From assembly GCA_018658465.1 (NCBI GenBank), contig JABHVE010000056.1:1-60908 (forward strand): 60,908 nucleotides of DNA, given 5' to 3'. The notes below the pieces were generated by a model, which was given only the letters and a program-made list of their open reading frames with translations, did no database searches and was not told the origin of the DNA. Made by a program: the position numbers and the translations under genes. The stretch's first letter is position 1. Each line of letters begins with the position of its first letter. This stretch comes from Alphaproteobacteria bacterium. Its GTDB lineage: Bacteria; Pseudomonadota; Alphaproteobacteria; UBA2966; CAIVPW01. This document shows positions 40,015 to 60,908 of the stretch, piece by piece.

Positions 40015-40069
40015 TGGTGCCCGCTGCTGGACTCGAACCAGCACGGCCGTTAGGCCAAGGGATTTTAAG
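40015..40069 (-). pseudogene. 3' half of tRNA-Leu(UAA) only, from anticodon loop to CCA. The 5' half is absent.
   Basis: Minus-strand read: CTTAAAA-TCCCT-T-GGCC-TAAC-GGCC-GT-GCTGG-TTCGAGT-CCAGC-AGCGGGC-A-CCA (class II long variable arm). Upstream there is no AGGGA stem, D arm or GCCCGCT acceptor strand. Confidence 0.8.
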
Positions 40070-40195
40070 ACCTCAAACCCAACATTCCTGTACAACCTTT
40101 TTCGGCTCAAATCGGCTGAAAATATGAGTTGTCGTTTATCCACAGCGAGGGCGACCACCCAGAACGTTCCGTAAAAATCTGTGCCTGATTACACA
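40063..40195. repeat. Left copy of a perfect 133-bp direct repeat
   Basis: I compared ttttaagacctcaaaccc...gtgcctgattacaca base by base and found it identical to 60776-60908. It starts inside the tRNA-Leu anticodon loop. Confidence 0.95.
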
Positions 40196-40496
40196 GGAAT
40201 TACACCGGCCCGTCTCGCCCTCTTTTTGCTGCCCACCAACCCGTGCCGTCGTCAACGTACTGATCCGTGCTGACTGAGAGCCATCCCGTACCCCTATTTA
40301 CTTGATGCACCCGGTTTTAAAAAACTTCTGCATTGTTCTCGGCGAATCTGTGGCATTTTCCCGCGATGAGGCCCTGCGTCAACCTCATGATGTCCAAATC
40401 AGTCTCGTCAGTGATCGGAACCCAAACCATCGGACCGGTTGAAAGGGGTTCGATCTCGATTTAGAAATTGGGGTCCCCGGGAAATCGAGGCCCAGG

Positions 40497-43400
40497 TCAA
40501 ATTGCGCCAACAATGGCGTCAGCCAATGCCTGAACGTGGGGCGGGCGGATCATGGAAATATGACTTCCTGGCACTGGAATAACTTGGACCGGCTGCGCGG
40601 TGTGCTGCTGCCAACCCAGATCCGGGCGGCGGGCAAGCCTACCTGGGCCGGAGGTGCTGCCGGACATTTTTCCTTCTGCCCTAAACACCAAGACCCGCCC
40701 GGGGTATAGGCCCCCCTCGTATTCTCCGGTGATGCGGTTGTGATCCAGCATCAGCTTCAGGAAACCCTGGAACTCTTCGACCCTGGTGGCCTCGGGCGCC
40801 AGCTCAAACGCTTTGAATTTGTCAAGAAACAGACTGTTTGTTTCCTCCATGCTGCTTGCCGCCAGCAGTTCCTTGGACAATCCGATGTCGTGGCCCACAA
40901 GTTCCGAAACCTTGTTCGCGAACGCAAAGAGTTTGGCCGTCAAATCCTCCGAACCGGACGTTGAATCGCTGGTCAGATCGGGCGCGATCTGGTCGAGCAC
41001 GGCGACAATCGGGGCGACACCTGTCCTCTGATGAAAAAGGCGCGCCATTTCAAAAGCGGCCAGCGCACCCATCGACCAACCCCCCAGAATCGGAACGCCG
41101 TCGTGGACAATATCAAGCATCGCCTCCAGATAAATTTCCGCCATCTTCGCGATGGAACCGGGCGCGACCCCGCCCTCTCCAAGCGCTGCCTGCAAACCCC
41201 AGAACGGTATCTCAGTACCCAGGCAACGGGCCAAATCGTAATAGCAAAGAACATTTCCTCCGGCAGGATGGACGAAAAAGCACGGGGGTTTTTTCCCCTT
41301 GGGCTGAATGGAGACCAGTGGAGTGGCGGCTGGGGCGTCAGCATCCGCCCGCAGCAAGTCGGCTAACCTCCGTATCGATCCGTACTCGAACATAGCCGAG
41401 AGCGGAATGCTGCGGCCAAATTTCTGGTGGATTGCGGCCATCAATCGCACCGCCAGCAAGGAATGCCCGCCCAATTCGAAAAATCCATCATCGATGCCTA
41501 TTTTTTCGATCTCCAGAACGTCCTGCCAAAGTTTCAACAGCTCCAGTTCCCAAGTATCGCGCGGTGCCCCGCCGGCAAATTTTTCTGCTTCAGGTTTGGA
41601 TTGGGCAAGGGCCCCGCGGTCAATTTTTCCGTTTGGCGTTAGCGGAATAGCGTCCGGGAAAGCGAACGAATTTGGAATCATGTAACCCGGTAGCCGAGAC
41701 TTCAGATAACGGGTCATGGTTTGGGCGCCAATTTCCGATCCCGCCCGACGACGGACGTATGCTGAGATCCGGCTCGTAGGAGCCTTGTCGTGGGGGCCCA
41801 GAACAACCGCCTGTTCCACGTCCGCGTGAGACAAAATCACCTGTTCAATTTCTTCCAAGTCCACACGAAACCCTCTGATCTTGATCTGCCGGTCGGCGCG
41901 GCCGAGAAATTCGATGGCGCCGTTTTCTAACTTTCGGCCCCGGTCGCCGCTGCGGTACAGGCGCTCCCCGAGCGTCCAAGGATCGGCCTGAAATTTTTCG
42001 GCGGTCCAATCGGGACGATTCAAATATCCCCGGGCAACCGTTGGACCACCGATAAAAATTTCCCCATGGATTCCGTCCGGTACCGGCTGGCGCTGACCAT
42101 CCAGCACATACGCGCAGGCGCCGCCGATGGGAAAGCCCAGGGGCACAGTGCTGGCAGCAAACGACTCATTGCTCGGAACTTCATAGGCCAGCACTCCAAC
42201 TGTTGTTTCGCTTGGGCCATAGTGATTCAGTATCCGCAGCGCCGGCGACACGTTACGGATTTCCCGAATTAATTCCGGCAGGCATGTCTCACCACCCAGC
42301 ACCAAGAGCATGCGTGGCAGCAGTGCGGGGGACTGTCCAGGCCCCATCAGAGCCCGCAGATGTGCAGGAACAATCTTTAAGCAATCCACGGGCCGGCGGC
42401 CGAAGTATTCGGCCAGGGCTACCGCGTCAGTGACGATTTTTTCGGGGACCAACACCACGCACCCGCCATTTAACAAAGGCGGGAAAAGCATGGTGTAGCC
42501 GAGGTCCGCGGCGGCTGAGGTGACTGTGGCAAAGCGGTCGCCCGCGCCCAAGCCCATAACGGCCCAAATGCCTTCGCAATAATGGGCCAGATGGCCGTGC
42601 TCGACCTCGATCCCCTTGGGGGCCCCCGTACTGCCGGATGTGTACACAATATATGCCAGCTGGCCCCCTTCCTCATCCAACCCTTGGTCGCCCGTCAAAT
42701 TGGCCGGGTCCTGTGCGCCGACGGCGTCGGCGCATTCGTCCAGATTTATGGCAGTTACGATTTCCAGGATTTCCCCCAAACCCACGTCGACGGCCGAGTC
42801 TGACAGAAGAAAATTTGCCTCGGCGTCCCTCAACATCGCTGCCATTCTATGGGGAGGATTAATAGGATCCAGGGCAACAAAAGGACTGCCCATTTTCCAT
42901 ACAGCCAGGACCCCAACCAACAGTTCCGGCGACCGTGGCAGCAGCAGCGCCACAGGCTCCCCCCGAGACGCTCCTGCCTTTACCAGGTGCCGCGCCAACT
43001 GGTTGGCCCGGGCGTTGAGTTCCTCGTAGTTGAGTTCTGTGTCCGCCCCTTCGGCGGCCATGGCGTACGGTGTTCGCGCAACCTGGGCTTCAAACTGGCG
43101 GTGCAGTGAAGGCGGGGCTGGCGGGGCTGCCACGACCGCCGGCCTCGGAGCTGAAATTTCCGTGTCGAAATATTCCAGCGAGCCCACCGCGCAATCAGGA
43201 TTGGCAATCACGCTTTCAAGCATGGATTGGTAGTGGTCCAACATCCGCCGGACAGTGGCCGCGGCAAAAACATCTTTGGAGTAGTGCAGCGTCAGTGTCA
43301 GCCCGTCGCCGATGTCCTCCGTCCACAGGTTCAGATCGAATTTCGCCAACCCATAATCAATTTTCAGGACTTCCAAGCGCATCCCCGGCACCTCGTAAAG

Positions 43401-44612
43401 GGATGGAACATTTTGGTGGACCAGCATGACCTGGAAAACCGGATGGCTGTTCAGGGACCGGGAGGGATTTAGCTCTCCCACCAGCCGTTCGAAAGGATAC
43501 GACTGATCCTGCACTGCGTTTTGGCAAACCGTCCGGACTTCCCCGAGAAAGATCCTGAAAGGCTTATCCCCGTTCACAGTGGTGCGCGTGACCACGGTAT
43601 TGGCGAAAAGCCCGAAAACGTTTTGAAAAGCGCGGGTGTCACGGTTGGCGGTCTGTGTGCCAACGGTGACTATTTCCTGGCCGGTGTACCGGAACAGCAG
43701 CGCGTGGAAGGTGGCCATGAGCACATGAAACGTGTTTGCCCGCTCGGCCCGGGCAAACTCCTTGATCCGAAAATTTAGGGCGGGGGCAAGCCGGGCGGTT
43801 TCAAGGCCTCCCCGGTGTGTCATCACGGCGGGCCGAGGGTGGTCGGCGGGCAGCTCCAATGGCGCCTCGAAAGATAGGCGGCCGGTCCAGCGTTCGCGCT
43901 GACCGTCGGCGGCGGCGCTGTTCAACCATTCCCGCTCCCAACCAACAAAATCGATGTATTGAAATTTTTGGTTGGGAAGTGGATCCGGCGCGGACGCGGC
44001 CAAAGCCCCATAGATGGCGGAAATCTCCCGGCCCAGCATTGCATTGGACCAGCCATCGGAGACGATGTGGTGGGTCGTGTTAAGCAAGAGGTACTCTTTG
44101 TCCCCCACCTGAACGACTGTGAACGCAAACAGCGGGCCGGTGTCCAACACAAACCGCCGCAACCCTTCCGCACGGGCGATTTCCATGGCCTGGTGTTCGC
44201 GCTCCTTTGGAGGCAGCTCGCGCAAATCCCGCCACGAAAACGCCGGTGCCAATTTTTTGTGCACACGTTGGTACGGTCGTCCTCCATCGGCGTGAAAAGT
44301 CGTACGCAGGATTTCGTGGCGAAGCGAGAAAGTTTTGACGGCTTCCTCCATCCAATGCGCGTTCAGAGGTTCCTCCCGGGTGGCACGCAGGGCACCGGGA
44401 TTGTTGAACGCCGAGGAGGAATCCGGAGAAAGTTGGGTCAGAAACCATATGCGCTCTTGGGCACCGGACAACGGGTAGTGTTGCTGTTGGTTTCGGGGCA
44501 TGTGCCCAACTGTTGGACCAGTACCGCCCCCCGACTCGTTCAACTTCTTTACAAGGGCCTGGATTCGATCCGGCGATAACGAAGCCAATCGCTGACCTAA
44601 ATGGTCAGTCAT
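40497..44612 (-). CDS. NRPS termination module, C-A-T-TE
   Basis: C: LSGAQERIWFL, HHIVSDGWS. A: LAYIVYTSGSTGAPKG, NHYGPSETT, YRSGDRGR, GRADRQIKIRGFRV, PNGKIDR. T: FFELGGHSLLAVR. TE: GGWSMGA. Start at MTDHLG (ATG 44612), overlapping the ER stop by 8 nt. Confidence 0.9.
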   Translation of the reverse strand: MTDHLGQRLASLSPDRIQALVKKLNESGGGTGPTVGHMPRNQQQHYPLSGAQERIWFLTQLSPDSSSAFNNPGALRATREEPLNAHWMEEAVKTFSLRHEILRTTFHADGGRPYQRVHKKLAPAFSWRDLRELPPKEREHQAMEIARAEGLRRFVLDTGPLFAFTVVQVGDKEYLLLNTTHHIVSDGWSNAMLGREISAIYGALAASAPDPLPNQKFQYIDFVGWEREWLNSAAADGQRERWTGRLSFEAPLELPADHPRPAVMTHRGGLETARLAPALNFRIKEFARAERANTFHVLMATFHALLFRYTGQEIVTVGTQTANRDTRAFQNVFGLFANTVVTRTTVNGDKPFRIFLGEVRTVCQNAVQDQSYPFERLVGELNPSRSLNSHPVFQVMLVHQNVPSLYEVPGMRLEVLKIDYGLAKFDLNLWTEDIGDGLTLTLHYSKDVFAAATVRRMLDHYQSMLESVIANPDCAVGSLEYFDTEISAPRPAVVAAPPAPPSLHRQFEAQVARTPYAMAAEGADTELNYEELNARANQLARHLVKAGASRGEPVALLLPRSPELLVGVLAVWKMGSPFVALDPINPPHRMAAMLRDAEANFLLSDSAVDVGLGEILEIVTAINLDECADAVGAQDPANLTGDQGLDEEGGQLAYIVYTSGSTGAPKGIEVEHGHLAHYCEGIWAVMGLGAGDRFATVTSAAADLGYTMLFPPLLNGGCVVLVPEKIVTDAVALAEYFGRRPVDCLKIVPAHLRALMGPGQSPALLPRMLLVLGGETCLPELIREIRNVSPALRILNHYGPSETTVGVLAYEVPSNESFAASTVPLGFPIGGACAYVLDGQRQPVPDGIHGEIFIGGPTVARGYLNRPDWTAEKFQADPWTLGERLYRSGDRGRKLENGAIEFLGRADRQIKIRGFRVDLEEIEQVILSHADVEQAVVLGPHDKAPTSRISAYVRRRAGSEIGAQTMTRYLKSRLPGYMIPNSFAFPDAIPLTPNGKIDRGALAQSKPEAEKFAGGAPRDTWELELLKLWQDVLEIEKIGIDDGFFELGGHSLLAVRLMAAIHQKFGRSIPLSAMFEYGSIRRLADLLRADADAPAATPLVSIQPKGKKPPCFFVHPAGGNVLCYYDLARCLGTEIPFWGLQAALGEGGVAPGSIAKMAEIYLEAMLDIVHDGVPILGGWSMGALAAFEMARLFHQRTGVAPIVAVLDQIAPDLTSDSTSGSEDLTAKLFAFANKVSELVGHDIGLSKELLAASSMEETNSLFLDKFKAFELAPEATRVEEFQGFLKLMLDHNRITGEYEGGLYPGRVLVFRAEGKMSGSTSGPGRLARRPDLGWQQHTAQPVQVIPVPGSHISMIRPPHVQALADAIVGAI

Positions 44613-45744
44613 ACGTGAGCACGAGCTTTCCCGTGTGCTGATATCGGGACATGAGCGTAAAAACCTCACCGATTTGGTCCACGGGGAACACCACCGTCTG
44701 AACCGGGTCAAAATGACCCTGGCCCAGATGATTGACGACCTCCCGCAGGAGCCCATTCATTCGGCCAGGCTGTTTCATGAACAACGAGAGATCAATGGCG
44801 GCAAAGGTCAGGCCTTTGCTGAATGGAGTGAGGTCCAGGGGCGCGCCCTGCGAAATGTCCTTTTTGTCTATCTGCAGGAATCTCCCAAATGGGCGCAGAA
44901 TTTCCAAGCCTCGGCGGACCGCCTCTCCCGACAGGGTATTCAAAATGACATCCACTCCTTCGCCGCGGGTGCGATCCATAATTTCATCGGCGAATGCCAC
45001 AGAGCGGGAATCCATGGGGCCTTCGACGCCCAGGGACACGAGCATCTCGCGCTTTTCCGGCGAGCCGGCCGTCGCGAAGATTTCGGCCCCGGTCCATTTG
45101 GCGATCTGAAGGGCCGACAGACCTACGCCACCGGTGGCCGTGTGAATTAACACCCGCTCGCCGGGCTGAATCCGGGCCACATGGCGCAAGGCGAAATAGC
45201 TTGTGGCGAAGACTGTGGGAATCCCCGCCGCGGCCTCGAACGTCATAGCGTCCGGGATCGGGACGGCTTGTTCAGCCAGCAAAAGGGGTACGGCGCAAAA
45301 ATGACCGTCCTCAATGATAACCCCTTCTGGCGTCATGCTGCCGACGGAAAGGGCGGCCACCCGATCCCCTTCCATGAACCCGGTCACACCTTCTCCGCAA
45401 GCCCGCACAATGCCCGCGTAATCCGTGCCCATCACCGATGGCACCCCAGGCGCGGCTGGATATAAGCCCATGGCGATCATCAGGTCGCGAAAATTGAGGC
45501 TGACCGCCTTGGCCTCCAGCTGAATTTGGCCGGGGCCCGGAGCGAGACCATCCATCTGATGCCTTTGGATCGAGCCGAAATTGCCCGGAGCGCCCAATCC
45601 AAATCCGTAATTTCCCCAGCCAGAGCGATCAGGTGTCTCGCTGTTTCGCGGGGCCGGTTTTTTGGCCGAGCCTACAAGCCGTTCAGCAAGTTTAGCCCGC
45701 TGCTCTGGCGAGAGGTTTGCGAGCCGGGCGGTTAGGTCAGCCAT
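44605..45744 (-). CDS. Stand-alone MDR-superfamily enoyl reductase (PKS_ER-like, trans-acting)
   Basis: LEAKAVSLNFRDLMIAMGLYP, nucleotide-binding IHTATGGVGLSALQIAK. The N-terminal ~45 aa form a non-catalytic extension containing LANLSPEQRAKLAERL. ATGA overlap with the PKS stop. Confidence 0.85.
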   Translation of the reverse strand: MADLTARLANLSPEQRAKLAERLVGSAKKPAPRNSETPDRSGWGNYGFGLGAPGNFGSIQRHQMDGLAPGPGQIQLEAKAVSLNFRDLMIAMGLYPAAPGVPSVMGTDYAGIVRACGEGVTGFMEGDRVAALSVGSMTPEGVIIEDGHFCAVPLLLAEQAVPIPDAMTFEAAAGIPTVFATSYFALRHVARIQPGERVLIHTATGGVGLSALQIAKWTGAEIFATAGSPEKREMLVSLGVEGPMDSRSVAFADEIMDRTRGEGVDVILNTLSGEAVRRGLEILRPFGRFLQIDKKDISQGAPLDLTPFSKGLTFAAIDLSLFMKQPGRMNGLLREVVNHLGQGHFDPVQTVVFPVDQIGEVFTLMSRYQHTGKLVLTYD

Positions 45745-48700
45745 CAGACCTCGTCCAATTCCGAGATCATCTCCTCCAGGGTTTCTTCGCTGGCCATGGA
45801 CACTAGCCGTTCCATCACCGCCTCGGCGAGGCCACGAACGGTGGGATTCTTTATGAACGAATCAATGGGAAGGTCGATGCTAAATGTATCCGAAGTAATG
45901 GCCGTCGCCTGCACCGCCAGCAACGAGTTGCCGCCTACTTCAGTAAAATCATCGTTTGCGCCGATCTGCGAGATGCCCAGGATGCCCTGCCAGATTTCGG
46001 CCACGGCCTTTTCAATGGCGTTTTCTGGGGCTTCGTACGGTGTTGAAAGGGACGGGCGCGCATGGGTGGGGGCCTCGGCTGTGCCCTCGTCATCAGAGTT
46101 GTCCGATTTGGCTCCGGCGTTGTTTTCCTCCTCGATCAACGCATCCAGGTCACGGGTGCTGACCACCACCTGGGGAAAGGACGGTGCGGCGAGGATGCGC
46201 GCGAGAGCATCGACGCCCTCGCCCGGCAGAAGGTCGGTCGGGTTTGCCGTCAGTGATTCCGGCATGCCAGCCCCGGCAATTCCTGGCGTCGTCGAAATGG
46301 TCCCGATGCTAGGCCCCGGCGCTCTTCCCGTGGCGGTTACCCGCTTTAGACTGTATTTCTTGACCTCCACCAGTACCCGGCCGTCAGTGTCCAAAAACGT
46401 GACGTCAAAGGACATGGTTTCGGCTTCGGGCCCGGCTTCTCCATTCAGTCGAATATGACTCCAGAACGTCGCCGTCAGGGGCGCACGTATGTGCACTTGC
46501 CGGTATCCAGTGGGCAAATATGCGCCTTCGGCCACGTGTTTGACGGCGGCGGCCAGCGCCACGTCTGTCAGCGCCGGATGATGCGGGTAGGTAATTAGAT
46601 CGCCGGAAAATTCGTCCGGCAGTTGGATCTCCGCCAGCCATTCGCCGTCGCCTATGCGAAGTCCGTTTAGCGCTTCCCACCGTGGGCCCAGTTCGAGATA
46701 GGGAGCGTCGTCGCCGTCCCGCACGCGATAGAACGGGCGGTCGTCGATTTCTCCGTCGAACCGGGCCACCAACGCGACGACATCGATTGCAGTTGGGGTG
46801 GGCGTCTTGGGAAGTTGGACGGTTCCCCGGAAATGTTCCTGCCAGTGGCCGCCCGGACCATTCCGCTGGCTTTTGAAACTGAACCGATATTTATCCCCGG
46901 CTTCCACAATGCTCAGGCGGACCCGGCGGTCCGTGTCCGGCTCGAACATCAGCGGTGAGATAAAGTAGGTATTTTCCAGAACCGCTGTGCTGCCCGGGTT
47001 CTTCAGGGCCGAGAATCGCGCCATCAAATCAAGAAATCCGGTCCCGACCATCGTTGGGATGCCGAAAACAAAATGGTCGCTGATGATCCAGTCCGATTCA
47101 GGACTCACCAACACGTCATAAAAGTCTTCGCCATGTTCGGCGCCAGCAAAACGCAGCTCCGGGCCATCCTCATCGCGGCTGACCGGGCCAACCCCGCGGC
47201 GGGTGTTCACCTGCTGCCAACGCGCTGCCATTCCAATTTCGGCCCACGACGGCCAATCAATGGAAACAGCGACCCAAGGACGTTTGGCTCGCAGAGATTG
47301 GGCCACGGCGTCCAAGAAGCTGTTGGCCGCACAATAATCCACCCGCCCAGCCTCGCCGAGAATGGACGAGATGGATGAAAACAACACAAAGAAGTCTAGG
47401 TCTTTGTCCTTGAACAACTGGTCCAAAATCAAGGTGCCCCGGACTTTTGCATTTAAGACGTCCGCCGCCATTTCGGGGGTCTTCAGGGAAATGATGCCGC
47501 TACCAGCAACGCCGGCTGCGTGGACGACGCCATGGATCGCGCCGAACCGGCCAACAGCATCGTCGACCACAGTGCGCATCGCGGCCAAGTCGCCGCTGTC
47601 TGCCCGGACGGCGATCACATTGGCGCCTGCCGATTCCAATGCGCGGATCCCGCGGATCCGTTCGCTGGTCGTATCGGTCTCGGAGTGATCGGACAGCCAG
47701 ACGTCCCAATCGCCACAGGCCAACAACGGGGCACGGTGGGTAAGAATCAGCGTGGCGCCCGCAATGTCCTCGGCGATCCGTTGGGCCACGATCAAGCCGA
47801 GCCCCCCCAAGCCGCCACTTATCAAGTATACGCCGTTCTCACGCGATACCGGGCCGAGGCCATCCTTCTCGGCAAGGCGCACCTGCTCGAAGCTCTCGAC
47901 CCAGCGATATCCGTTGCGGTAGGCCGCCAAAGTTCCGGCAGTGCCGAGCCGGGTCTCGGCAATCAAATTGGCGGCGAGTAAATCCGCCTCGTCTGCGGTG
48001 GCAGGAAAGTCGACGTCCACGAACCGCCCGTGTGCCCCCGGAAATTCCCGTCCCCAAACGCGGGCAGGGCCGATGGCCAGAGCTCTTACCGGATCCAACA
48101 CGCCTTCGCCGGCCACGTCGAACACTCCGCTGGCTGCCACCACGAGCCGCACACCGTCGATCACGTTGTGCTTGACCAGCGCTTGCTCCAGGAACAACGG
48201 GCTGTAAAACGCCAGCGCCTCGCTTTCATCCAGAGTTTCAAAGTCCGGCATTCCACCTGCCGTCGCCACGTTCCACAAATGAACGATGCGAGACGGGACC
48301 GTTGCCGCCTGCTTTAGTGACCCAAGTAACGCCTGATAATCATCCGCCACCCCGGGCCGAATGACCCATGTATGCGCGTCAATACTTTCGAAGGCGTTGC
48401 CCCGGCGGACGAGGACCACCTGTTCTCCGAGCTCTCGGATCTGGTTAGCCATTGCGGAGCCCACGCCTTCGCCGTCCTCCAAAATCAGCCAAGAGTCGCC
48501 AGAATTCGTTTCGCCATCTGGTTCCGGGCCCGACAACAATTCCGCAGCAGCTGTCCGCCGCCACGCCGGCAAGTAAAACCACGCGCTCATGTCTGGGTTC
48601 TTCTGGTCGATTTTGCGTACCGAGGATTCGGCGGATGAGGCTCCGGTCAGAAGAAAACGCTGCCGCTCAAACGGATATCCAGGCATGGACACGCGGCGGG

Positions 48701-51305: not shown

Positions 51306-51306
51306 T

Positions 51307-54300: not shown

Positions 54301-56385
54301 AAGTGTCAACGCCTCAAAATTTTCGGTGCGCGCCATCGGTTGACCGTGCTGCACCGCGATAACAGTACGAAGGGACTCATTGCGCCGGACCACAGCGCCC
54401 AAGGCGGTCTCTAGGTCGCCCGGGTCCAAATCCCCTTCAAACCTGACTGAAAACTGGATGTTGTAGGCGATTTGATCCGGGAAAGTCCGGCACAGAAGCC
54501 AAAGACTTCGCTGATTTTGTGAGCAAGGGTAGGTCCCAGTTTGACCCTGCCGCTTGATCGGTCTGCCACCAGGGCCCGAAATTGGATCCAATGCGCCAAG
54601 AAATTCAGAAAAGGCGGCGGGGGTGGCGTGGTCGAAAAAGTCTGCGTAGGACAACGTCGTCCGATGGGCCTCACCAACCCGCGCCAAAACCGCCGCGACT
54701 CCCAAAGAATCGCCCCCCAATTCGAAAAAATCGTCTTGGGTGCCGACGCCGTCGACGCCTAGAACTTCCTCCCATATCCGTACGATCTGCATTTCTCTAA
54801 CGGTGGCCGGTGCGACGAAGGCGTATGCCAGCGCCGGGCGCTCCCGGCCCGGAGCGGGTAAATTGGTGCGATCGATTTTCCCACTAGCGAGTTTTGGAAA
54901 TTTCTCCAGCAGCACAAACGATTTGGGAATCATATAGTCCGGCAGCCGGTCCGCGAGAAAACCGCGCAGGACATCGACGGTCGCGTACCTGGCCAGGCGG
55001 AACGTCAAATAGGCGGCCAAAGTCCGATCCAATTCGTTTTCACGGACGGCCACCACCACCGCTTGGCGGACGGCCGGATGATCTTGGAGCGCCGCTTCGA
55101 TCTCGCCGCATTCAACCCGATGTCCGCGAACCTGCAATTGAAAATCGCGGCGCCCAATAAAATCCAGGTCTCCGCTTTCCGTGCGGCGCGCCATGTCGCC
55201 GGTCTTGAACAGGCGTTTGTCCGAACCGGGCGAAAACGGATTTGGCACGAACCGTTCTTGGGTGGCCTGGGGAAGATTTACGTATCTGCTGGCAACACCA
55301 TCTCCAACGATGCAAATTTCGCCGGGCTCGCTGGCCGGAACGGGGCGCATTGCGCTGTCGAGCAAGTAGATTTCGGTGCCGTCAATCGGACGGCCGATCA
55401 TGACTTGGTCCCCGTCGCGCAGTTCCGTATAGCTGGCATTGGCGACGACTTCCGTGGGCCCGTACAAATTCCACAGGCGGGTGTCCGGGAACACCGAAAA
55501 CGACCGACCCACCAATGATTTGGCGACGGCCTCACCGGACAAAAACACGCCGGATGGAGGCGTAATTTGTTCACCCGTTTCCGACTTTGCCTCTGCGAAA
55601 CAAACCAATTCGTTCCACAAGGTGGGAACGCAATAAAGACCGTGGCGAGGATGATCCCGATACCAGGCCAACAACTCCCCAGGGTTTTTCACGGTCTCCC
55701 TGGGCAGAATATTCAGGGTTCGTCCCAGAAGGAGCGGCGTATAAAATTGGGTCACCCCAGCGGCAAAACACATCGAAGACGACAGCGGCAGGTTCAACTC
55801 GCCCGACTCTACAAACAGATGTTCCCGGTGCCAACGCGTGTAGTAGGCCAGGCTGCGGTGGGAAACGGCGACCCCCTTTGGCTTGCCGGATGACCCAGAT
55901 GTGTAAAGCACATAGGCGGTGCGGTCGGGGTCCTGTGTGACGTCAGGGTTTTCTGCCGCCGAAAATTCCTTTGATTGCACCACGTCTGCGACCGCGACGG
56001 CGCTGGGGCACAACGGCCCCAATCGTTCAAGGTGGCGGGTCTGGGTTAGCAGCACCTGGGATCCGGTGTCTTGCAGTTGAAAGGCTACGCGATCCGTTGG
56101 ATCGGTCGTAGAAACTGGTACATAGGCTCCGCCAGCTTTCAACACACCCAGGATCGCGACGGCAGTGTCCGGCCCCGGATCCAGTGCTATCCCGATGCAA
56201 GCGCCTGGAGTAACGCCCTCTTTCAGCAAATGATGGGCGATGGCGTTGGCTTGCGAATTTATTGCGGAGTAGCTGACTTCAATTGTGCCGAATTGGACAG
56301 CGACGGCGGCTGGGTTCCTGAAGGTCTGGTCTTCAAAAATCCCGTGTACAGTGCAGCTGGTTTGTTCCGTCCTGGGTTCCGGCAT
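51307..56385 (-). CDS. NRPS, A-T-C-A-T (loading didomain plus one elongation module)
   Basis: A1: AYVLYTSGSSGKPKG, NLYGPTE, FKTGDMAR, GRRDFQLQVRGHRV. T1: FFELGGDSLGVA. C: CSQNQRSLWLL, HHIIFDGRS. A2: MYMMYTSGSSGSPKG, NLYGPTE, FKTGDQAR, GRLDRQVKVRGYRV. T2: FFDVGGHSLMMA. Confidence 0.9.
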   Translation of the reverse strand: MPEPRTEQTSCTVHGIFEDQTFRNPAAVAVQFGTIEVSYSAINSQANAIAHHLLKEGVTPGACIGIALDPGPDTAVAILGVLKAGGAYVPVSTTDPTDRVAFQLQDTGSQVLLTQTRHLERLGPLCPSAVAVADVVQSKEFSAAENPDVTQDPDRTAYVLYTSGSSGKPKGVAVSHRSLAYYTRWHREHLFVESGELNLPLSSSMCFAAGVTQFYTPLLLGRTLNILPRETVKNPGELLAWYRDHPRHGLYCVPTLWNELVCFAEAKSETGEQITPPSGVFLSGEAVAKSLVGRSFSVFPDTRLWNLYGPTEVVANASYTELRDGDQVMIGRPIDGTEIYLLDSAMRPVPASEPGEICIVGDGVASRYVNLPQATQERFVPNPFSPGSDKRLFKTGDMARRTESGDLDFIGRRDFQLQVRGHRVECGEIEAALQDHPAVRQAVVVAVRENELDRTLAAYLTFRLARYATVDVLRGFLADRLPDYMIPKSFVLLEKFPKLASGKIDRTNLPAPGRERPALAYAFVAPATVREMQIVRIWEEVLGVDGVGTQDDFFELGGDSLGVAAVLARVGEAHRTTLSYADFFDHATPAAFSEFLGALDPISGPGGRPIKRQGQTGTYPCSQNQRSLWLLCRTFPDQIAYNIQFSVRFEGDLDPGDLETALGAVVRRNESLRTVIAVQHGQPMARTENFEALTLPRVDLRQLNQAEATREADRLTAAQAASPFDLEFGPLYRFRLVRVGPERQRLLVTVHHIIFDGRSINLFCRDLLEQYRRIQAAEPDPVRGEQIQYRDWSAWREGPGAENDGPAREYWRESLMGSAPDLKFPADFTRPPVRGFEGSIRTHLIRAELKERLGTFNRAHQTTAFMTLLAVFKVLLFRYSGQDDILVGTPVANRRHSEAEDLIGFLANTIVLRSRLRMDQPFTELLAEVRKNCLDSLEHQSFPFDQLVDLLGPKRSLNQTPVFQVMFALQEKLLTTGAGDHLGLSVHEDGNAGAKYDLVLDVQDQDQGFELKLSYKTELIDGVAIERFLTQFVEVLSEAVAHPDRVLADFAVSPQTDLRRIEAWNATAHENDRDLGLIGLFEAQAARTPDATAIKCGETRLTYGELGARAESVAQTLGKNGARAGDPVGIHLEPSAEMIIVLLGVLKSGAAYVPLDPYYPRDRIDAIIADAGLALIVTTRDLGDRLGPVPSTLVYAENISGSHSAEPGVQAPATGPSDLMYMMYTSGSSGSPKGVRVSNGGPANFVLWLRDTFPLTSDDAVLMRTSINFDISVWEIFFPLITGARLVVGRRDDLQASESLASLIQRETITHVQFVPSALRGFVDSGQVESCKSLKRVFSGGEVLPITLQEDVFAAYAGELHNLYGPTEASIYVCHWQCQRAERLRAVPVGKPIHNTSIHILDDHMSPVPIGLTGQIYIGGVCVADGYHGDPEQTAASFVQDPFKPDARARLFKTGDQARYLPSGNIEFLGRLDRQVKVRGYRVELGEIEHLLGDHPNVRHAIIILREDEPDDVRLVAYLLYEDQSGPDASELRTYLKQKLPDYMIPAHFVRLDSIPMLPNSKADLAALPKPEYQKTLRSELDRIYANDYERTLAAIWEEVLETGQFGPQDSFFDVGGHSLMMARLGGLIEQKLGVTVSNIDLFQFPTVRSLARHLSRSDDATGRVAADMARRQALRKRHKPVARRVSNLREI

Positions 56386-56570: not shown

Positions 56571-56873
56571 TCAGGAATTCATGATGTCGGCAACCACACC
56601 ATGATGCTTGAGCACATTCTCGCTCGTCGATTGGGCCTTTGCCGGGTCCACATGGTGGTAACCGGAGATCGCGTGGATGCCATGCCCCGCCCGGACTTTC
56701 GCGGCAATTTCTTTGATTTGGGCGACAATCGCTGGGTCGTCGGTATGCTCGGCAATCACATGGTCCAACGTTTTGGTTCCAGCCCGAACTTCATCGACTT
56801 GCCGGAGAATTATCGCCTTTAATTCCGAATCATCGGTGAAGTGATCCACAATACGCTCGGCCCTGGATGCCAT
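56571..56873 (-). CDS. Hypothetical 100-aa protein with His-rich C-terminal half
   Basis: Strong RBS (GGGAGG, 6 nt upstream). AGHGIHAISGYHHVDP...KHHG. No family recognised and no MbtH motifs. Confidence 0.6.
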   Translation of the reverse strand: MASRAERIVDHFTDDSELKAIILRQVDEVRAGTKTLDHVIAEHTDDPAIVAQIKEIAAKVRAGHGIHAISGYHHVDPAKAQSTSENVLKHHGVVADIMNS

Positions 56874-56950
56874 AAATACCTCCCTGAGAACTTCGTCGGA
56901 TTCATTATGTTTAGCCTATCTGCGAACTTTGGACCCTGGAAACGCCAAAG

Positions 56951-57958
56951 TCAAACTGTCGGAATGGCTTCCATCAACGTGTGGCCCGTGCGCATTGGAT
57001 TAACCTCAACGACTGTAAATCCCGCATCCTCAAGCAAATTGTGCATTTGCGCCAAATTTCTCGCCGTTGTTCCGGTTTCGCAGATGACCATCTGCATGAG
57101 ATCGTCCACAGCTTGGTGGGTGTTAGGCGCCGCGACTGCCGCAAGTGGCTCGATTACCAACAACCGGGCATCAAGCTTGCTGGCCATCGCCCGCCGGAGC
57201 GCCCCCAGGATTTTGGGTGAGCTGGTATCGTTCCAGTTGTGGAGGACGTTTTTGAGGATGTAAAAATCCCCGTTCCCCGGGAGGTCACCAAAAATGTCGC
57301 CGGAGACAAACCGCAGACGATCCGCCAAATCCGGCGTTTCGGTCTTCAGATCCTCGGTCGCCCGGGCACACACGTCCGCCCGGTCAACACAAAGCCCGCG
57401 CAACAAAGGCGCCGCGCCGAGCAAACTTTTTAGTAAAGTCCCGCGCCCGCCGCCGACGTCCACGGCCAGATCACCGGCTGACCAATCCCGCATTTCGGCC
57501 AACAGCGCGCCCACCGGCCGGGTAAGATCATCCATTGCGCGATCATAAACCGCCGCTGCATTCGGAGTCCGGGCCATGTATTCGTACACCGAGCCGCCGA
57601 AGACTTTGGGAAACGCGGACTCGCCAGTCTCCAAACAATGCATTAGTTCACCAAACCCGGCCTGATATTCCCCCGCTGCCAGCATGCAAAAATTGCGCAT
57701 CGAGTGGGGGTCGCCGGACCGCAGCGCCTGCGAATGCTCGGTGTTCGAATATCGGCCATCGGGCGTGGCCTCAAACAGCTCGACCGCGGCAAGCAGGTTC
57801 AGAACTCGGGATAGGACCGCCGCGACAGTGCTCGTGGCTTGTGCAAGATCGGCCGCTGAGCGCGGCCCGTCGTCCAACAGATCTGCAATTCCCAACCGGG
57901 CTGCAGCGCCCACAGCGGAAGCGATCCATCCTCCGCAAGCAAGCTGTAAGGCCAGCAT
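56951..57958 (-). CDS. Class I SAM-dependent O-methyltransferase (COMT / family-2 type with N-terminal dimerisation domain)
   Basis: SAM motif I VDVGGGRGTLL, DRLRFVSGDIF, YILKNVLHNWND, plus a winged-helix-like N-domain. Confidence 0.85.
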   Translation of the reverse strand: MLALQLACGGWIASAVGAAARLGIADLLDDGPRSAADLAQATSTVAAVLSRVLNLLAAVELFEATPDGRYSNTEHSQALRSGDPHSMRNFCMLAAGEYQAGFGELMHCLETGESAFPKVFGGSVYEYMARTPNAAAVYDRAMDDLTRPVGALLAEMRDWSAGDLAVDVGGGRGTLLKSLLGAAPLLRGLCVDRADVCARATEDLKTETPDLADRLRFVSGDIFGDLPGNGDFYILKNVLHNWNDTSSPKILGALRRAMASKLDARLLVIEPLAAVAAPNTHQAVDDLMQMVICETGTTARNLAQMHNLLEDAGFTVVEVNPMRTGHTLMEAIPTV

Positions 57959-58012
57959 TCTGTCGGTCCTGGGGTAATTCGCCGCTAACCGCCGCCTAGT
58001 TCCGGGCGCCGG

Positions 58013-58957
58013 TCACGATTTCGCCGCATGGTGGACGAATTTCAACAAAACGTCCGAGGCGCTGCGGTCGTCGGATTTGGCGGTCAGCAAATTCACGATA
58101 TCCTGGTGAGCAGGGCCCAATTTGCCGTAGGCATCGGTAATTGCCTTCAGGGACGACTTTATGGCACGGGCGTCCTTGAGCATCGATGCCACATCTAGTT
58201 CATAGGGAATTCGGCTCGGATCATCTGCCGGAGTTGGCTGCTTGTTGTGCCATTTCAGGATCTCTTCCACCAAATGATCCGTGGTTTCCTCCAATGGGCC
58301 GTGGCTATCGGCCAACGCGGTCGACAATTTCTCGACATCGGCCTGTGCCTTGGGTGTCATGACGCATAATTCCGCCTCGCCCTTCTTTTGGCGGATCCGA
58401 TTTGTCACGCGCTGGTTGACGATGACAAGAACTTTGGAGACCTTCCCGGCAGTTGATCTCATGGCAACACTGGAAACGAACCCAAGCACGCCAACAGTTT
58501 TATTTTTCACAGCCAGCAACTCCGCTTCCCTGGGGCTAAGGTCCTTGGGCGCAGCGCTTTCTTCGTCTTTCTCTAGCTCGGAGTCGGCCTTGCCTATGGC
58601 GTCGCCGCCGTTCAGCGTCTCCAACTGGTCCGAGGCGGCCTGGAAAACCACACCACGCGTTTTCACTTCCTCGCCGCTGACGCCCTTGGCCAACGCGGAT
58701 ACTAGCTGCCCGTACTGCTTAAGCACGTCGGCCACTGCCCGGCGCAGGGCTAGGGCATCTAACAACCTTCTTTCGGGCGATCCGGCCGGAGCACTGTAGG
58801 ATTTTGCCGTGAGTTTGACGTCGCCAGAGGTCATGACCATCCGGCTGTGCTGAAGGGCTTCCAAAGTCCCGAAGGTGTTGTTTAGTTTTGCGGCCAACGT
58901 TGAAGTTGATTCAGAAAATCCCTCAACCCTGGATCCAACTGTTTCGGTTTTGGCCAT
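58013..58957 (-). CDS. Hypothetical 314-aa soluble, largely helical protein
   Basis: RBS AAGGAG. Clean ORF. No catalytic motif or family recognised. Confidence 0.6.
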   Translation of the reverse strand: MAKTETVGSRVEGFSESTSTLAAKLNNTFGTLEALQHSRMVMTSGDVKLTAKSYSAPAGSPERRLLDALALRRAVADVLKQYGQLVSALAKGVSGEEVKTRGVVFQAASDQLETLNGGDAIGKADSELEKDEESAAPKDLSPREAELLAVKNKTVGVLGFVSSVAMRSTAGKVSKVLVIVNQRVTNRIRQKKGEAELCVMTPKAQADVEKLSTALADSHGPLEETTDHLVEEILKWHNKQPTPADDPSRIPYELDVASMLKDARAIKSSLKAITDAYGKLGPAHQDIVNLLTAKSDDRSASDVLLKFVHHAAKS

Positions 58958-59069
58958 GTAAAATTTCTCCTTTGACTTTGCCTTCGTCCGGGAACACAGA
59001 GCAAGGCAAATTATTAAATTCGTCCTGGCGGGCCACGCTTGGCGCGCGCTGGCGCCGATTTACCCGGCC

Positions 59070-59303
59070 TTATTCGTCCGAACCTTCGTGCAGCTCCTCA
59101 AGCCCTTCGTGCATTTCCGCCAGGCTTTTGAGCACTGTGACCAACCCAAAAATTAAAATGCCATGCTCACTTTGCAAGCCCTCAGAGAGCGAAAACATTT
59201 GTTCTTGCAATTCCCACGCGCTGGCGAAGACCATGAATAACCCAGCCACGATTGTTACGCTGGGTAGGGCTGCAAATCCGGTAATTTTGTACAAAATTTT
59301 CAT
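59070..59303 (-). CDS. Hypothetical 77-aa membrane protein (two TM helices, acidic tail)
   Basis: RBS GGAGG. TM1 ITGFAALPSVTIVAGLFMVFASAW, TM2 GILIFGLVTVLKSL, tail HEGLEELHEGSDE. Confidence 0.55.
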   Translation of the reverse strand: MKILYKITGFAALPSVTIVAGLFMVFASAWELQEQMFSLSEGLQSEHGILIFGLVTVLKSLAEMHEGLEELHEGSDE

Positions 59304-59359
59304 GGTAATCCTCCGGTGATTGTTTCGGATCAGTTCCTAGGCGTCCGACCGATGAAAGG

Positions 59360-60127
59360 TCAGCCGGATTTTAGCGCATCGGCGGTCATGGCCACCACAT
59401 CGATCGTCACATTGTCAGATGCTGGCCTCCGAATTGCCAGGGCCATCGAGTGAGCGCCCGTGAGGCGCCAAAGGCTGAAGTGCCAGCGACCGGTATGGTC
59501 GAATACCTTGTCGGTAAAACTAATCTGTGGGGACGAGCCCCGCAAGTCAAAGGCGAAAAGGTCGAGGGGTGCGGCCAGGCCTTCCCCAATGGCTTTGATA
59601 AAAGATTCTTTCAAGGTCCATTGGTCATAAAACATTGGCGCCTGGTCAGAGGGCCGTGCCGCCAGCAAATCGTCGATTTCGGGGGGTGCGAAAAACCGGG
59701 CTGCCACCGCCAGAAAATCAGTGGCCCTGTTGTGGGCCTCCGCATCCACACCCACGTCGAAACCGTTCGCCACCGCGCAAGCCACAAGTCCGTCCGTATG
59801 GGTGATGCTGAACCGCAAATCGGATTGGCTTTCTGGTTCCGCCACCATCGGTCGGCCATTCTTATTGGTTTGGAAAACCCAAGCAGATGCCGGCGTGCCG
59901 GCAAATCGCGCCAGCATCGAGCGCAGAAGAATGCGGGCAGAAATAAATCGCGTTTGGTCGGCTTCGACACGCAGCTGATCATGACGGTGCCACTCGGCGC
60001 TGGACAGTGCTTTGCGGGCGGAAAGACTGCTTGCTGCCAAGGCAATTTCCGCGCCCGCCAGATACCACAGCCAAACGGTTCCGGTGGGGGCAGCCGCCGC
60101 TGGCAGCTCCGGCTCGCGCTGGGTCAT
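59360..60127 (-). CDS. Sfp-type 4'-phosphopantetheinyl transferase
   Basis: FSITHTDGLVACAV, GVDAE, and WTLKESFIKAIGEGL. Confidence 0.85.
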   Translation of the reverse strand: MTQREPELPAAAAPTGTVWLWYLAGAEIALAASSLSARKALSSAEWHRHDQLRVEADQTRFISARILLRSMLARFAGTPASAWVFQTNKNGRPMVAEPESQSDLRFSITHTDGLVACAVANGFDVGVDAEAHNRATDFLAVAARFFAPPEIDDLLAARPSDQAPMFYDQWTLKESFIKAIGEGLAAPLDLFAFDLRGSSPQISFTDKVFDHTGRWHFSLWRLTGAHSMALAIRRPASDNVTIDVVAMTADALKSG

Positions 60128-60574
60128 ATTTAAAGTCCAAGTGCTTGGGCAGGGGCCGGGCGTGGATTCACCGAAGTAATTGCGCTTGGAACTCCCAGGG
60201 AAGCAATGCCAAATATTTTCTGGCGAGCTTTAAAAAAAGCGCCACGATGGTGAGGGCGTCTTCCGTAAGAAGCACCGTATTTCGGGTGTCGACCCCCGGC
60301 CCGAGGAACGATTGGACGGACGCTATTCCATCTCCGCTGCTGGTCCTCAAGGATGACGGAATGCTGGAGTAGCCGAGCAGAGAGCTGCCCACTAACTTAT
60401 CGAGAGCCATTGTGCGGGTCGCGGAGATTAGTTTTCGATGTACGCTGGTACGGCAACTGTAGGTCGTGATAAGAGAGTGTAATCGGGGTTTAGAAATTAC
60501 AGTCGCGCGCACTCAATAATCCTAGGGATGGCTGTGCTGCTCGCGTGTGATTTCAGGTTTTTTCGCGCCTGCCT

Positions 60575-60871
60575 CTATCCATCGTAGTAGAGAACGGCAA
60601 GGTATTCTTCGAGATTGTCCTCGTCGATCACGGTTTCGGGCCACCCAGACCAATCAGGGTCGTTGGGATCGTAGTCCAACGCAAGAGGCACGGGCACCGG
60701 GAAAAGCGGATACGACGCGCGTTCTAGGAGCCACTGACTACCGTCAACCAGTTGTTCCCCAATTGACGGAGCGTTTTTTAAGACCTCAAACCCAACATTC
60801 CTGTACAACCTTTTTCGGCTCAAATCGGCTGAAAATATGAGTTGTCGTTTATCCACAGCGAGGGCGACCAC
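60575..60871 (-). CDS. Hypothetical 98-aa protein. Its first 32 codons lie inside the right copy of the 133-bp repeat.
   Basis: GTG start. An in-frame TAA at 60902-60904 bounds the ORF. The C-terminal part (DPNDPDWSGWPETVIDEDNLEEYLAVLYYDG) looks protein-like. No family recognised. Confidence 0.4.
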   Translation of the reverse strand: MVALAVDKRQLIFSADLSRKRLYRNVGFEVLKNAPSIGEQLVDGSQWLLERASYPLFPVPVPLALDYDPNDPDWSGWPETVIDEDNLEEYLAVLYYDG

Positions 60872-60908
60872 CCAGAACGTTCCGTAAAAATCTGTGCCTG
60901 ATTACACA
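60776..60908. repeat. Right copy of the perfect 133-bp direct repeat, cut by the window end
   Basis: Identical to 40063-40195. Offset is 20,713 bp. Its true length is unknown because the window ends inside it. Confidence 0.95.

Follow-up and report, generated by a model that had tools for sequence, protein, structure and literature searches.

A tRNA-Leu(UAA) genomic island with an NRPS-PKS cluster as cargo and a second head-to-tail copy probably joined through the island's own integrase gene

Class A of Islander comprises tRNA islands whose attP is centred on the anticodon (Hudson, Lau and Williams 2015, PMC4383910), and the concept of sublocations is that of Williams 2002, as cited in PMC4383910. 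In an Islander tandem array each member has its own tRNA gene (tDNA) fragment and its own integrase (PMC4383910). Both the pks (colibactin) island of E. coli and the HPI of Yersinia are tRNA-Asn islands that carry an NRPS-PKS cluster, short direct repeats and a phage-type integrase (PMC8209727). CIMEs and the tandem accretion of integrative elements, e.g. ICESt1/ICESt3, have been reviewed (PMC5704250), and in Mx8 and SSV the integrase gene spans attP and is cut by recombination (PMC4383910).

The block that begins at 40015 of the window (the whole 60,908-bp stretch of DNA that was analysed) is a classical tRNA-integrated genomic island with an NRPS-PKS cluster as its cargo. The features of its left end and cargo are:

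40015..40069, minus strand: displaced tRNA-Leu(UAA) 3' fragment, reaching from position 32 in the anticodon loop to CCA; attR copy of the att block
40063..40069, unstranded: core/overlap copy 1, TTTTAAG (CTTAAAA, anticodon loop, on the tRNA strand); these 7 nt open the 133-nt repeat and close the tRNA fragment
40070..40496, unstranded: left (P) arm of the island, non-coding
40179-40196, minus strand: terminator-like hairpin in the left arm
40187-40205: candidate arm-type integrase site GATTACACAGGAATTACAC, of putative function
40497..44612, minus strand: NRPS C-A-T-TE (Pfam), 1371 aa by the JGI gene call; longest ORF to 44756
44605..45744, minus strand: zinc-dependent dehydrogenase, likely a trans-acting enoyl reductase (Pfam)
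45744..51305, minus strand: PKS module KS-AT-KR-DH-ACP (Pfam)
51307..56385, minus strand: NRPS A-T-C-A-T (Pfam)
56951..57958, minus strand: methyltransferase, Methyltransf_2 plus dimerisation domain (Pfam)
58013..58957, minus strand: 314-aa orphan protein, in every island copy
59360..60127, minus strand: Sfp/HetI-type 4'-phosphopantetheinyl transferase (PPTase; profile matches)

The minus strand of 40015-40069 reads CTTAAAA TCCCT TGGCCTAACGGCCG TGCTGGTTCGAGTCCAGC AGCGGGC A CCA. It is base-for-base the 3' 55 nt of the intact 87-nt tRNA-Leu(UAA) gene that ARAGORN called on sister contig L019 (tRNA-Leu(taa), 504-590), and the identity extends 0 nt beyond the 55-nt block on either side, confirming the tRNA 3'-half remnant of the original prediction. 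ARAGORN and Rfam made no call at 40015-40069 because it is only half a tRNA. ARAGORN found no tRNA 5' half and no second tRNA-Leu in the window, where the sole tRNA called is a tRNA-Met (23800-23876). The identity block has its first base at loop position 32, and the joint to the second copy described below also falls within the 7-nt anticodon loop; both support the predicted crossover in that loop. Both strands of the window together contain just 4 occurrences of TTTTAAG. The true att repeat is the 55-bp tRNA 3' half, with copies 21,458 bp apart (core to core). In the reconstructed attP the sole repeat of at least 9 nt is the GATTACACAGGAATTACAC motif, at −128 and +124 from the core.

On sister contigs, which come from the same population as the window, the window's left flank and the cluster are followed, directly after the PPTase gene, by a tyrosine integrase, an 83-bp spacer, an intact tRNA-Leu and housekeeping genes. 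L019 carries the integrase C-terminus, the 83-bp spacer and the intact tRNA. On a 152,649-bp JGI contig the window's left flank is followed by the cluster, then a 380-aa Phage_integrase, then housekeeping genes; its 608-bp gap between histidine kinase and NRPS matches that of the window, and its 257-bp gap between the integrase and the next gene matches as well. The same MAG has the integrase/tRNA exit on another contig: its integrase, MBT4710390.1, lies on a 5,588-bp contig and belongs to the same accession block as the window proteins (MBT4710728-741, 60,908-bp contig). The sister contigs thus bear out the proposal that the island is integrated, with its recombinase and the tRNA 5' half past the end of the window.

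Pfam confirmed the NRPS-PKS cluster, with A-T-C-A-T, KS-AT-KR-DH-ACP, an ER-like enzyme, C-A-T-TE, methyltransferase and PPTase. Domain and profile searches of the unit's proteins revealed no integrase, replication or transfer function. The 314-aa orphan protein had no match in Pfam, NCBIfam or PHROG and only 4 homologues; its AlphaFold model has a pLDDT of 43, too low for use.

The island resembles those of Islander: an intact tDNA marks one end and a displaced, equally oriented 3' tDNA fragment the other, the intact tDNA is adjoined by a tyrosine integrase, the identity block runs from the anticodon loop to the 3' end, and the size is 21 kb. It differs in that the window itself is without integrase and intact tDNA, and the joint to the second copy carries neither a tDNA fragment nor an integrase, which places it outside the Islander definition of a tandem array. 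With pks and HPI it shares a hybrid NRPS-PKS cargo on a tRNA-integrated island with its own integrase, and population variants with a decayed or absent integrative module. However, the tRNA is Leu-UAA rather than Asn, the repeat 55 bp rather than 17 bp, the integrase apparently of another family (homologues carry PF14659 and PF00589, and no P4-type N-terminal domain was seen), the host an uncultured marine-type alphaproteobacterial MAG, and the island is duplicated head to tail.

A repeat search of the window returned, as predicted, a 133-nt direct repeat of 100% identity (40063-40195 and 60776-60908, spacing 20,713), whose second copy runs off the window end at 60908. The features of this end are:

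60247..60360, plus strand: 38 codons with which the fused integrase ORF of the integrase-bearing variant begins, as its non-homologous N-terminus (tblastn and alignments)
60354..60360, unstranded: TGACGGA, the breakpoint at which the window diverges from the integrase-bearing variant
60361..60762, unstranded: segment X, variant-specific, with a small acidic minus-strand ORF that stops at 60575
60763..60783, plus strand: integrase-start remnant TTG ACG GAG CGT TTT TTA AGA, (M)TERFLR; codons 5-7 overlap the core
60776..60908, unstranded: opening of the second head-to-tail unit copy (the core and the arm's first 126 nt), cut short where the contig stops

With the 133-bp repeat, a second copy of the entire 20.7-kb island opens head to tail with the first; the 133 bp are the visible part of a repeat of the whole unit and not the att repeat. 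Both junction sequences read as given in the original prediction, where a repeat-induced assembly join had been one explanation. The contig does stop exactly within the repeat, and its opposite end has 120 bp of foreign-looking AT-rich DNA, indicating that contig ends are not clean here. However, six independent contigs from six samples (L001, L004, L010, L011, L012 and L013), assembled by SPAdes, MEGAHIT, Logan and one other assembler, cross the same joint. All six fuse 40196..40063 directly to 60775.. at 99.8–100% identity and extend 0.85–4.2 kb past it into the unit; L001 reaches 4,205 bp beyond, into the NRPS-TE gene. Every sequence crossing the end of segment X (7/7, the window and the six contigs) enters the arm. 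The joint is real, and a misjoin or chimeric contig end is effectively refuted by the recovery of joint and 415-bp segment X in six other samples and at least three other assemblers; the predicted start of a second tandem unit or circle was borne out. The 98-aa ORF predicted at the right junction is present but not clearly intact, its first 32 codons being arm DNA and only its last roughly 58 residues having a weak homologue.

No recombinase was visible in the window according to the original prediction, which holds at gene level but misses remnants at both 60763-60783 and 60247-60360. In (M)TERFLR, 6/7 residues are identical to the MTLRFLR of homologue P0002, the family N-terminus being M-x-L-R-F-x-R-L, and the whole plus strand of the window has a single [start]xxRFx[RK] motif, at this position. 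A tblastn search of the window with the 380-aa integrase covered residues 1-38 alone, in a frame that stops in the window at 60370-60372. The first 36 residues of the fused integrase are unrelated to its 28 homologues and homology begins at V-D-G, the codons of the TGACGGA breakpoint. Segment X, which we infer to be the native region upstream of a full-length integrase gene, matched nothing in L003, L019, the remainder of the window, plasmids or phages; its small acidic ORF has P0126 as sole homologue (59 aa, 45% identity, BLASTP). No contig found showed an ancestral arrangement in which segment X leads into a full-length integrase, which we counted against the origin proposed below.

tRNA islands usually bring a copy of the 3' end of the tRNA. 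We put at roughly 0.6 the probability that the NRPS-PKS island integrated as copy 1 and then gained a second head-to-tail copy, the joint arising via the island's own integrase gene. A tyrosine integrase placed the island in the anticodon loop of tRNA-Leu(UAA), and with the island came a copy of the tRNA's 3' 55 nt. The tRNA was thereby regenerated at the integrase end, and the 3' half native to the host was pushed to the opposite end, as 40015-40069. The genuine left-end core TTTTAAG may then have recombined with a look-alike, TTT TTA AG, in integrase codons 5-7, most likely off-target and catalysed by the integrase, either through integration of a circular copy into the integrase gene already present or through exchange between sister chromatids. 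This would have joined the beginning of the integrase gene to the left-end core and deleted integrase and tRNA copy from copy 1, which ends in integrase codons 1-7 and so has neither an integrase nor a tRNA-restoring segment. The array most likely exits through the variant with integrase, 83-bp spacer and intact tRNA-Leu. That integrase appears damaged by a deletion of ~0.54 kb between two TGACGGA heptamers, which would have removed segment X and the first roughly 45 integrase codons, probably part of the arm-binding domain. The two cluster copies in tandem are probably now locked in place.

Several observations weigh against this origin of the joint. The integrase-start remnant spans only 7 codons, the microhomology before the joint could be as short as 2–4 nt (TTTT), and AACGC, left of the joint on the tRNA strand, is unlike the tRNA anticodon stem and hence a poor core-type integrase binding site. 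The DNA left of the joint thus suits illegitimate recombination at TTTT(AAG) without integrase, as at TGACGGA, the region's other breakpoint being a plain 7-nt microhomology unrelated to att. We regard this as unlikely, since the right-hand partner of the joint lies within the 7-nt anticodon-loop overlap, 7 nt out of more than 20 kb and the one place where strand exchange is expected for this integrase family; about half of tRNA islands are classed as anticodon-centred in Islander (PMC4383910), which we also counted against it.

Among contigs and reads, none physically joins copy 1 to the integrase end of copy 2, which counts against the tandem, and a circle or a mixture of two strains therefore fits the same assembly graph. 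Several MEGAHIT contigs also pass the 60353 branch or the core unbroken, where a break would be expected of a strict 1:1 tandem, barring the loss of one branch to coverage gaps. A free, integrase-less 20,713-bp circle, excised or looped out and assembled with an integrated single copy as a lollipop walk (flank, loop, re-entry), would give the topology of the joint, which is that of circle closure. It would also suit the unitig-type contigs L011, L012 and L013, which cross the core unbroken by a competing attR branch, the exact PPTase allele in 22 contigs versus 5 for a flank protein of the same length, and a unit coverage of ~1.8x that of the flanks, readable in one low-coverage sample only (ERZ4200979: unit contig 5.09, flank contigs 3.02 and 2.71); this coverage was counted in favour of the tandem as well. 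But the unit lacks integrase, replication and transfer functions, and such a non-replicating circle needs constant regeneration from a tandem array or a never-seen ancestor. Excision of an integrase-bearing island predicts tRNA-half, core and arm, whereas we observed segment X, core and arm, and the −128 candidate arm site is missing from the joint. We consider the circle quite improbable.

Two coexisting strains, one with a single copy and the N-terminally fused integrase, the other an integrase-less variant array of unknown far end, would make the window a path through a shared graph, its left junction and right joint possibly on different molecules. Most single assemblies gave a contig of either the integrase type or the segment-X type, breaks at the branch being confined to some of them (L007 stops at 60352, a single base short of the first difference), and the JGI contig traverses a single copy. 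Such a mixture is nevertheless doubtful: the same MAG has both junction types, the unit sequences at either end are indistinguishable (at most about 1 difference per 8 kb), and the integrase-less array still needs an exit, for which none but the integrase end was seen.

Under the preferred tandem, whose two ends would lie on one chromosome, the units are identical copies and not different elements as in CIMEs and ICESt1/ICESt3, and the internal junction is a hybrid of integrase 5' end and core instead of a regular att. As in Mx8 and SSV, the integrase is truncated by recombination at a core inside its ORF; there this is the normal attP design, whereas the codon 5-7 site of this island seems to be a secondary one that arose by chance, with the normal attP some 1.3 kb off, next to the tRNA copy. 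The Sphingomonas parapaucimobilis plasmid NZ_CP155757.1 has different cargo and, as divergent upstream gene, a helix-turn-helix protein in place of the small acidic ORF. It encodes an integrase of the same family (42% identity, same conserved N-terminus) facing a tRNA-Leu(taa) in opposite orientation 65 bp away, a layout that we counted in favour of tRNA-Leu(taa) as the target of this integrase family.

The 133-nt direct repeat in the original prediction is exact, with 40063-40195 being 100% identical to 60776-60908 at a distance of 20,713 bp in a repeat search of the window, and its second copy runs into the window end. The predicted tRNA 3' half at 40015-40069 is also genuine. Read on the minus strand, it contains in order the anticodon loop CTTAAAA, the 3' anticodon stem, a long variable arm, the T arm, the acceptor strand, discriminator A and CCA, and it is base-identical to the 3' 55 nt of the tRNA-Leu(taa) on the related contig L019. 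ARAGORN and Rfam leave 40015-40069 uncalled because a half tRNA cannot score. Between the window and the L019 tRNA, identity ends abruptly on both sides of this 55-nt block, which runs from loop position 32 to the CCA. This pattern is the classical mark of an island placed in a tRNA gene by a tyrosine integrase, its attP being centred on the anticodon, and by this comparison the true att repeat is the 55-bp tRNA half and not the 133 bp. The 133-bp repeat thus stands as a repeat and falls as the att repeat bracketing the block. Group I introns are common in tRNA-Leu(UAA). An intron was rejected as the cause of the missing 5' half, with no Rfam intron model in 39700-40700 even at E <=10 and the 5' half then located on L019. 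An IS or MITE origin of the 133 bp was rejected as well, there being no additional copies within the window.

The far end of the island was found in V1, an integrase-bearing sister variant without segment X, the 60361-60775 stretch that precedes the second repeat copy in the window. Three V1 contigs (L003, L006 and L016) match the window up to 60360 and are unrelated beyond. L019 (MAG GCA_018648005.1) carries the integrase C-terminus, an 83-bp spacer and then, on the other strand, a complete tRNA-Leu(taa) of 87 nt; a Cupin_7 gene lies 87 bp beyond the tRNA. When the window, L003 and L019 are joined (314 bp of perfect overlap), the two cores are 21,458 bp apart. A 152,649-bp JGI contig has the same layout: it begins with the left flank of the window (CheA, MoaA, rhomboid, NAD kinase, a FecR-domain protein, an EAL protein and a hybrid histidine kinase), followed by a 608-bp gap of the same length as window 39889-40496 and by the whole cluster with the PPTase. 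A divergent 380-aa Phage_integrase lies 119 bp beyond the PPTase, and after a 257-bp gap come the housekeeping genes DUF2238, MoCF, SfsA, RadC, ADSL and purC/S/Q/L.

In Islander terms, the tDNA-distal island end has a displaced tDNA end fragment (40015-40069) oriented like the full tDNA, and an island tyrosine integrase gene adjoins the tDNA, 83 bp from the tRNA. The intact regenerated tDNA is absent from the window itself and was called by ARAGORN at the other end, on L019; it is also supported by the matching gene spacing on the JGI contig. The integrase proteins P0122 and P0001 match PF00589 and phrog_1. On sequence grounds the block passes as a tyrosine-integrase island in a tRNA gene with an anticodon-centred attP, a type that accounts for 2,083 of 3,919 Islander islands (PMC4383910). 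The option of an integrated island with its recombinase and tRNA 5' half beyond 60908 is therefore borne out by the V1 integrase and the L019 tRNA. The reported lack of any recombinase in the 20.7-kb unit is correct for a complete gene and incorrect as a total absence, as integrase remnants remain.

This integrase family appears to have a conserved target. On a Sphingomonas plasmid, an integrase of 42% identity and a tRNA-Leu(taa) of opposite orientation are 65 bp apart, and a 40%-identical integrase in IMG/VR adjoins a tRNA-Tyr. A viral scan with the integrase alignment recovered only relatives of <=40% identity, viral scans with exact patterns gave no match, and a metagenome scan recovered a single short integrase-type contig. 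Scans bearing on an empty site gave no exact match to the tRNA 35-mer among genome contigs or viral contigs, and an integrase protein scan of genomes returned nothing. Exact look-ups of the 926-aa ORF, the 1419-aa ORF and P0001 gave no useful match because their start codons differ from the recorded gene calls. In Sphingomonas parapaucimobilis, rpsA and IHF-beta accompany an integrase/tRNA-Leu(UAA) pair on a 138-kb "plasmid" (L028, NZ_CP155757.1, 2092-3819), which suggests that the molecule is a chromid, or chromosomal DNA assigned wrongly, and has an island at this tRNA too.

We next examine the joint at 60775/60776, where segment X runs into the core TTTTAAG (CTTAAAA on the tRNA strand) and the non-coding left arm of the island. 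The window DNA recurs at 99.8-100% identity in many other metagenome assemblies, and six contigs run from 40196..40063 straight into 60775.., as follows.

Contigs crossing the joint
L001, sample ERZ4201010, SPAdes
L004, sample ERZ23491405, assembler not identified, scaffold-type record name
L010, sample ERZ4200969, SPAdes
L011, sample ERZ27237579, MEGAHIT k141
L012, sample SRR7617886, Logan
L013, sample ERZ27250184, MEGAHIT k141

In one direction L001 extends for 4,205 bp, reaching into the NRPS-TE gene, and in the opposite direction it covers 7.7 kb of the cluster. All sequences that cross the right end of segment X enter the arm (7/7, window included). The look-up with the 98-aa ORF could recover joint-bearing contigs only, because this ORF spans the joint; look-ups with the PPTase and a 114-aa protein, which are free of this bias, gave the same picture. 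Since L001 and five further contigs cross the joint, 60776-60908 either opens a second complete unit of 20,713 bp or closes a circle. The original prediction, which had raised both forms, is supported and sharpened by these contigs and by V1. Its third option, a repeat-induced assembly join, was rejected, as the joint is not confined to one assembly. The window ends resemble de Bruijn graph overhangs, with 133 bp of re-entered repeat at one and 120 bp of AT-rich, foreign-looking DNA at the other, and fit a contig that halted on re-entering a loop. Window 1-120 has ~15% GC against 55-60% elsewhere, with a sharp change at ~121, and looks like a chimeric, k-mer-length contig-end overhang rather than native DNA.

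We prefer to read the locus as a tandem in the chromosome, with the V1 end as its exit. The fused V1 integrase (MBT4710390.1) is on a 5,588-bp contig of the same MAG as the window, whose proteins (MBT4710728-741, locus tags including HOB82_04335 and HOB82_04340) fall in the same accession block. In ERZ4200979 the k-mer coverage is 5.09 for the unit contig and 3.02 and 2.71 for flank contigs, a ratio of 1.7-1.9, which indicates about two copies of the cluster. L007 breaks off at 60352, a single base short of the first difference between V1 and the window, and indicates that both branches occur within one sample. Also in favour of the tandem, the arm always follows segment X, the unit has no gene for replication, integration or transfer, and excision of V1 could not yield this joint. 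A mixture of two strains, one with the joint and one with the V1 end, we consider unlikely, and a free circle carrying the joint slightly less likely still. On the side of a circle or two strains, no contig or read physically links copy 1 to the integrase end of copy 2, and several unitig-type contigs cross the core or the 60353 branch unbroken. The exact PPTase allele occurs in 22 contigs as compared to five for a flank protein of the same length (255-aa hydrolase), and unit contigs have ~12 mismatches in 98 kb as compared to 13 in 25.6 kb of flank contigs.

Across public assemblies, island 40063-60360 is more uniform and more often recovered than flank 24961-39141, and the hydrolase cluster contains 19 alleles and the PPTase cluster two. 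It is improbable, in our estimate, that the integrase-less 20.7-kb unit is an amplifiable or mobilisable NRPS-PKS cassette, in a multi-copy array or circle, that spreads between strains with an integrase acting in trans. Such a cassette would explain why the unit is seen ~4x more often and is ~4x less diverse than the flanking chromosome.

The chromosomal tandem is not a canonical tandem array as defined by Islander, because the internal joint has no tDNA fragment or integrase; it holds the 7-nt loop and seven integrase codons only. The 21 nt entering the core, TTG ACG GAG CGT TTT TTA AGA, encode (M)TERFLR, identical at 6/7 residues to the closest homologue (MTLRFLR) and matching the family motif M-x-x-R-F-x-R/K. 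On the + strand of the whole window this motif occurs once, at the joint, with ~1 per strand expected by chance; from the motif scan we calculate a chance of ~3 in 10,000 for a correct-strand occurrence no more than 10 nt from the joint. TTTTAAG itself is rare, with four copies over both strands of the window, two of which are the att copies.

We aligned 28 integrase homologues (52-62% identity), whose conserved N-terminus is MxLRFxRLxRPxIRRLKPGEKITEHGITAERLxDGDxRYSVNVMVDG. In the V1 integrase, 36 unrelated residues replace the first ~45 and homology starts at V-D-G, encoded by GTTGACGGA. This start coincides with the V1/window divergence at 60353-60360, and the unrelated residues are encoded by the island sequence that precedes the breakpoint (L003 3-1037, P0122; window 60247-60360). 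Homology beginning at V-D-G marks the V1 integrase, judged from the alignment, as itself a fusion without the canonical first ~45 residues. Part of its arm-binding domain is probably missing, and the enzyme may be inactive.

The simplest reading is an ancestor with segment X and a full-length integrase that underwent two rearrangements. The ancestral order would be PPTase, the shared 60128-60353, segment X, the integrase from 60763, the 83-bp spacer and the tRNA half. Recombination of the genuine core TTTTAAG with TTT TTA AG in integrase codons 5-7 would have made the duplication joint, and loss of ~0.54 kb between two TGACGGA heptamers would have made the fused V1 integrase. We favour an integrase-mediated secondary-site event for the joint, with a probability of about 60%, because its arm-side partner broke inside the 7-nt anticodon loop, 7 nt of >20 kb and the expected strand-exchange region. 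That same break argues against a joint made by plain microhomology without integrase, an origin we regard as rather unlikely; pointing towards it are the non-arm side of the joint, which is unlike an anticodon stem, the plain microhomology used in the sister rearrangement, and a real pre-joint homology possibly as short as TTTT.

In the reconstructed V1 attP, GAYTACACMGGAATTACAC is the only repeat >=9 nt, in direct orientation at -128 and +124 from the core, and its copies are candidate arm-type integrase binding sites. This 19-nt sequence lies at window 40187-40205 and L019 423-441, almost symmetrical about the att core, and its window copy overlaps a terminator-like hairpin. The joint is without the -128 copy, which makes it unlikely to be a competent attP.

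Under the ancestral order, segment X would be the native region upstream of the integrase, so no foreign origin is needed. Other origins were rejected. Convincing terminal inverted repeats are missing from segment X, which also has no plasmid or phage match (IS/MITE); the integrase tblastn signal ends at codon 38 (decayed integrase); and there is no similarity to L003, L019 or the remaining window (right-flank piece). It contains a small acidic ORF (60575-60775, minus strand) whose sole detectable relative in an exhaustive search of 1.8 billion representatives is P0126, a 59-aa protein of 45% identity. The idea that the ORF is part of a larger gene was rejected, with no homologue apart from itself among 5.8 billion proteins. 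The 59-aa match, the only one, suggests a genuine small gene, and the ORF may represent an uncharacterised small-protein family upstream of integrases; the Sphingomonas integrase likewise has a small divergent gene upstream.

The unit encodes a hybrid cluster, all on the tRNA strand, consisting of an NRPS (A-T-C-A-T), a PKS (KS-AT-KR-DH-ACP), an ER-like dehydrogenase, an NRPS (C-A-T-TE), a methyltransferase and the PPTase. GC content and composition do not differ between island and flank. The longest NRPS-TE ORF, of 1419 aa, and the ER-like gene share 152 bp (44605-44756). The JGI gene call has its start 48 codons downstream and gives 1371 aa; for this reason the 1419-aa ORF had no exact look-up match. 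A 314-aa protein (58013-58957) is present in every island copy. It has no domain matches and four homologues only; one of the four, 65% identical, is encoded on a 408-kb contig. The structure model of the protein is all-helical and of low confidence (pLDDT 43).

The nine scanned unit ORFs (77-aa ORF 59070-59303 excluded) are biosynthetic or domain-less small or orphan proteins, without the relaxase/oriT module that, with or without a type IV secretion system, defines an ICE or IME, and without type IV secretion genes. The unit also has no replication initiator or partition domain. Judged by this gene content it is not an ICE, IME or plasmid. We liken it to a CIME beside a related element (PMC5704250), a CIME being an element that has lost recombination and transfer genes and retains working att sites at both ends. 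In the unit, recombination and transfer genes are absent and the left site is a true attR, while the right site keeps the core and the arm of the next copy, without the tRNA half or the -128 candidate arm site. Unlike in a CIME, the internal junction is a hybrid of the integrase gene 5' end and the core. The closest cargo analogues are the pks island and HPI, NRPS-PKS islands at tRNA-Asn with an integrase and direct repeats, of which integrase-less immobile variants exist in some lineages (PMC8209727). In Mx8 and SSV, integrase truncation by recombination inside the integrase's own ORF is the normal design (PMC4383910), whereas the truncation here looks accidental.

The NRPS-PKS cluster of this uncultured alphaproteobacterium is thus a horizontal acquisition on a tRNA-Leu island whose boundaries and att site are now exact. 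An integrase cutting its own gene through an off-target core in the first codons is a candidate example of self-inactivation, and the later second deletion, which damaged the remaining integrase copy, would be one route to fixation of mobile cargo. About two cluster copies bear on dosage and on cluster counts estimated from MAGs. Where the end of a contig perfectly repeats a segment from inside it, a collapsed tandem duplication or a circle should be suspected, not an att repeat. The results are of use for cluster mobility, copy-number inference in MAGs and integrase self-inactivation.

Three repetitive stretches were observed in the flank. An intergenic array at 1628-1869 consists of five 49-bp tandem repeats, each with a GCGCGCC...GGCGCGT hairpin, and was rejected as CRISPR-like as it has no unique spacers. 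The FecR-domain protein gene contains a repeat with a 36-nt period (34012-34437), and a Gly-rich GGC-repeat coding stretch is found in a 625-aa ORF (6388-6861).
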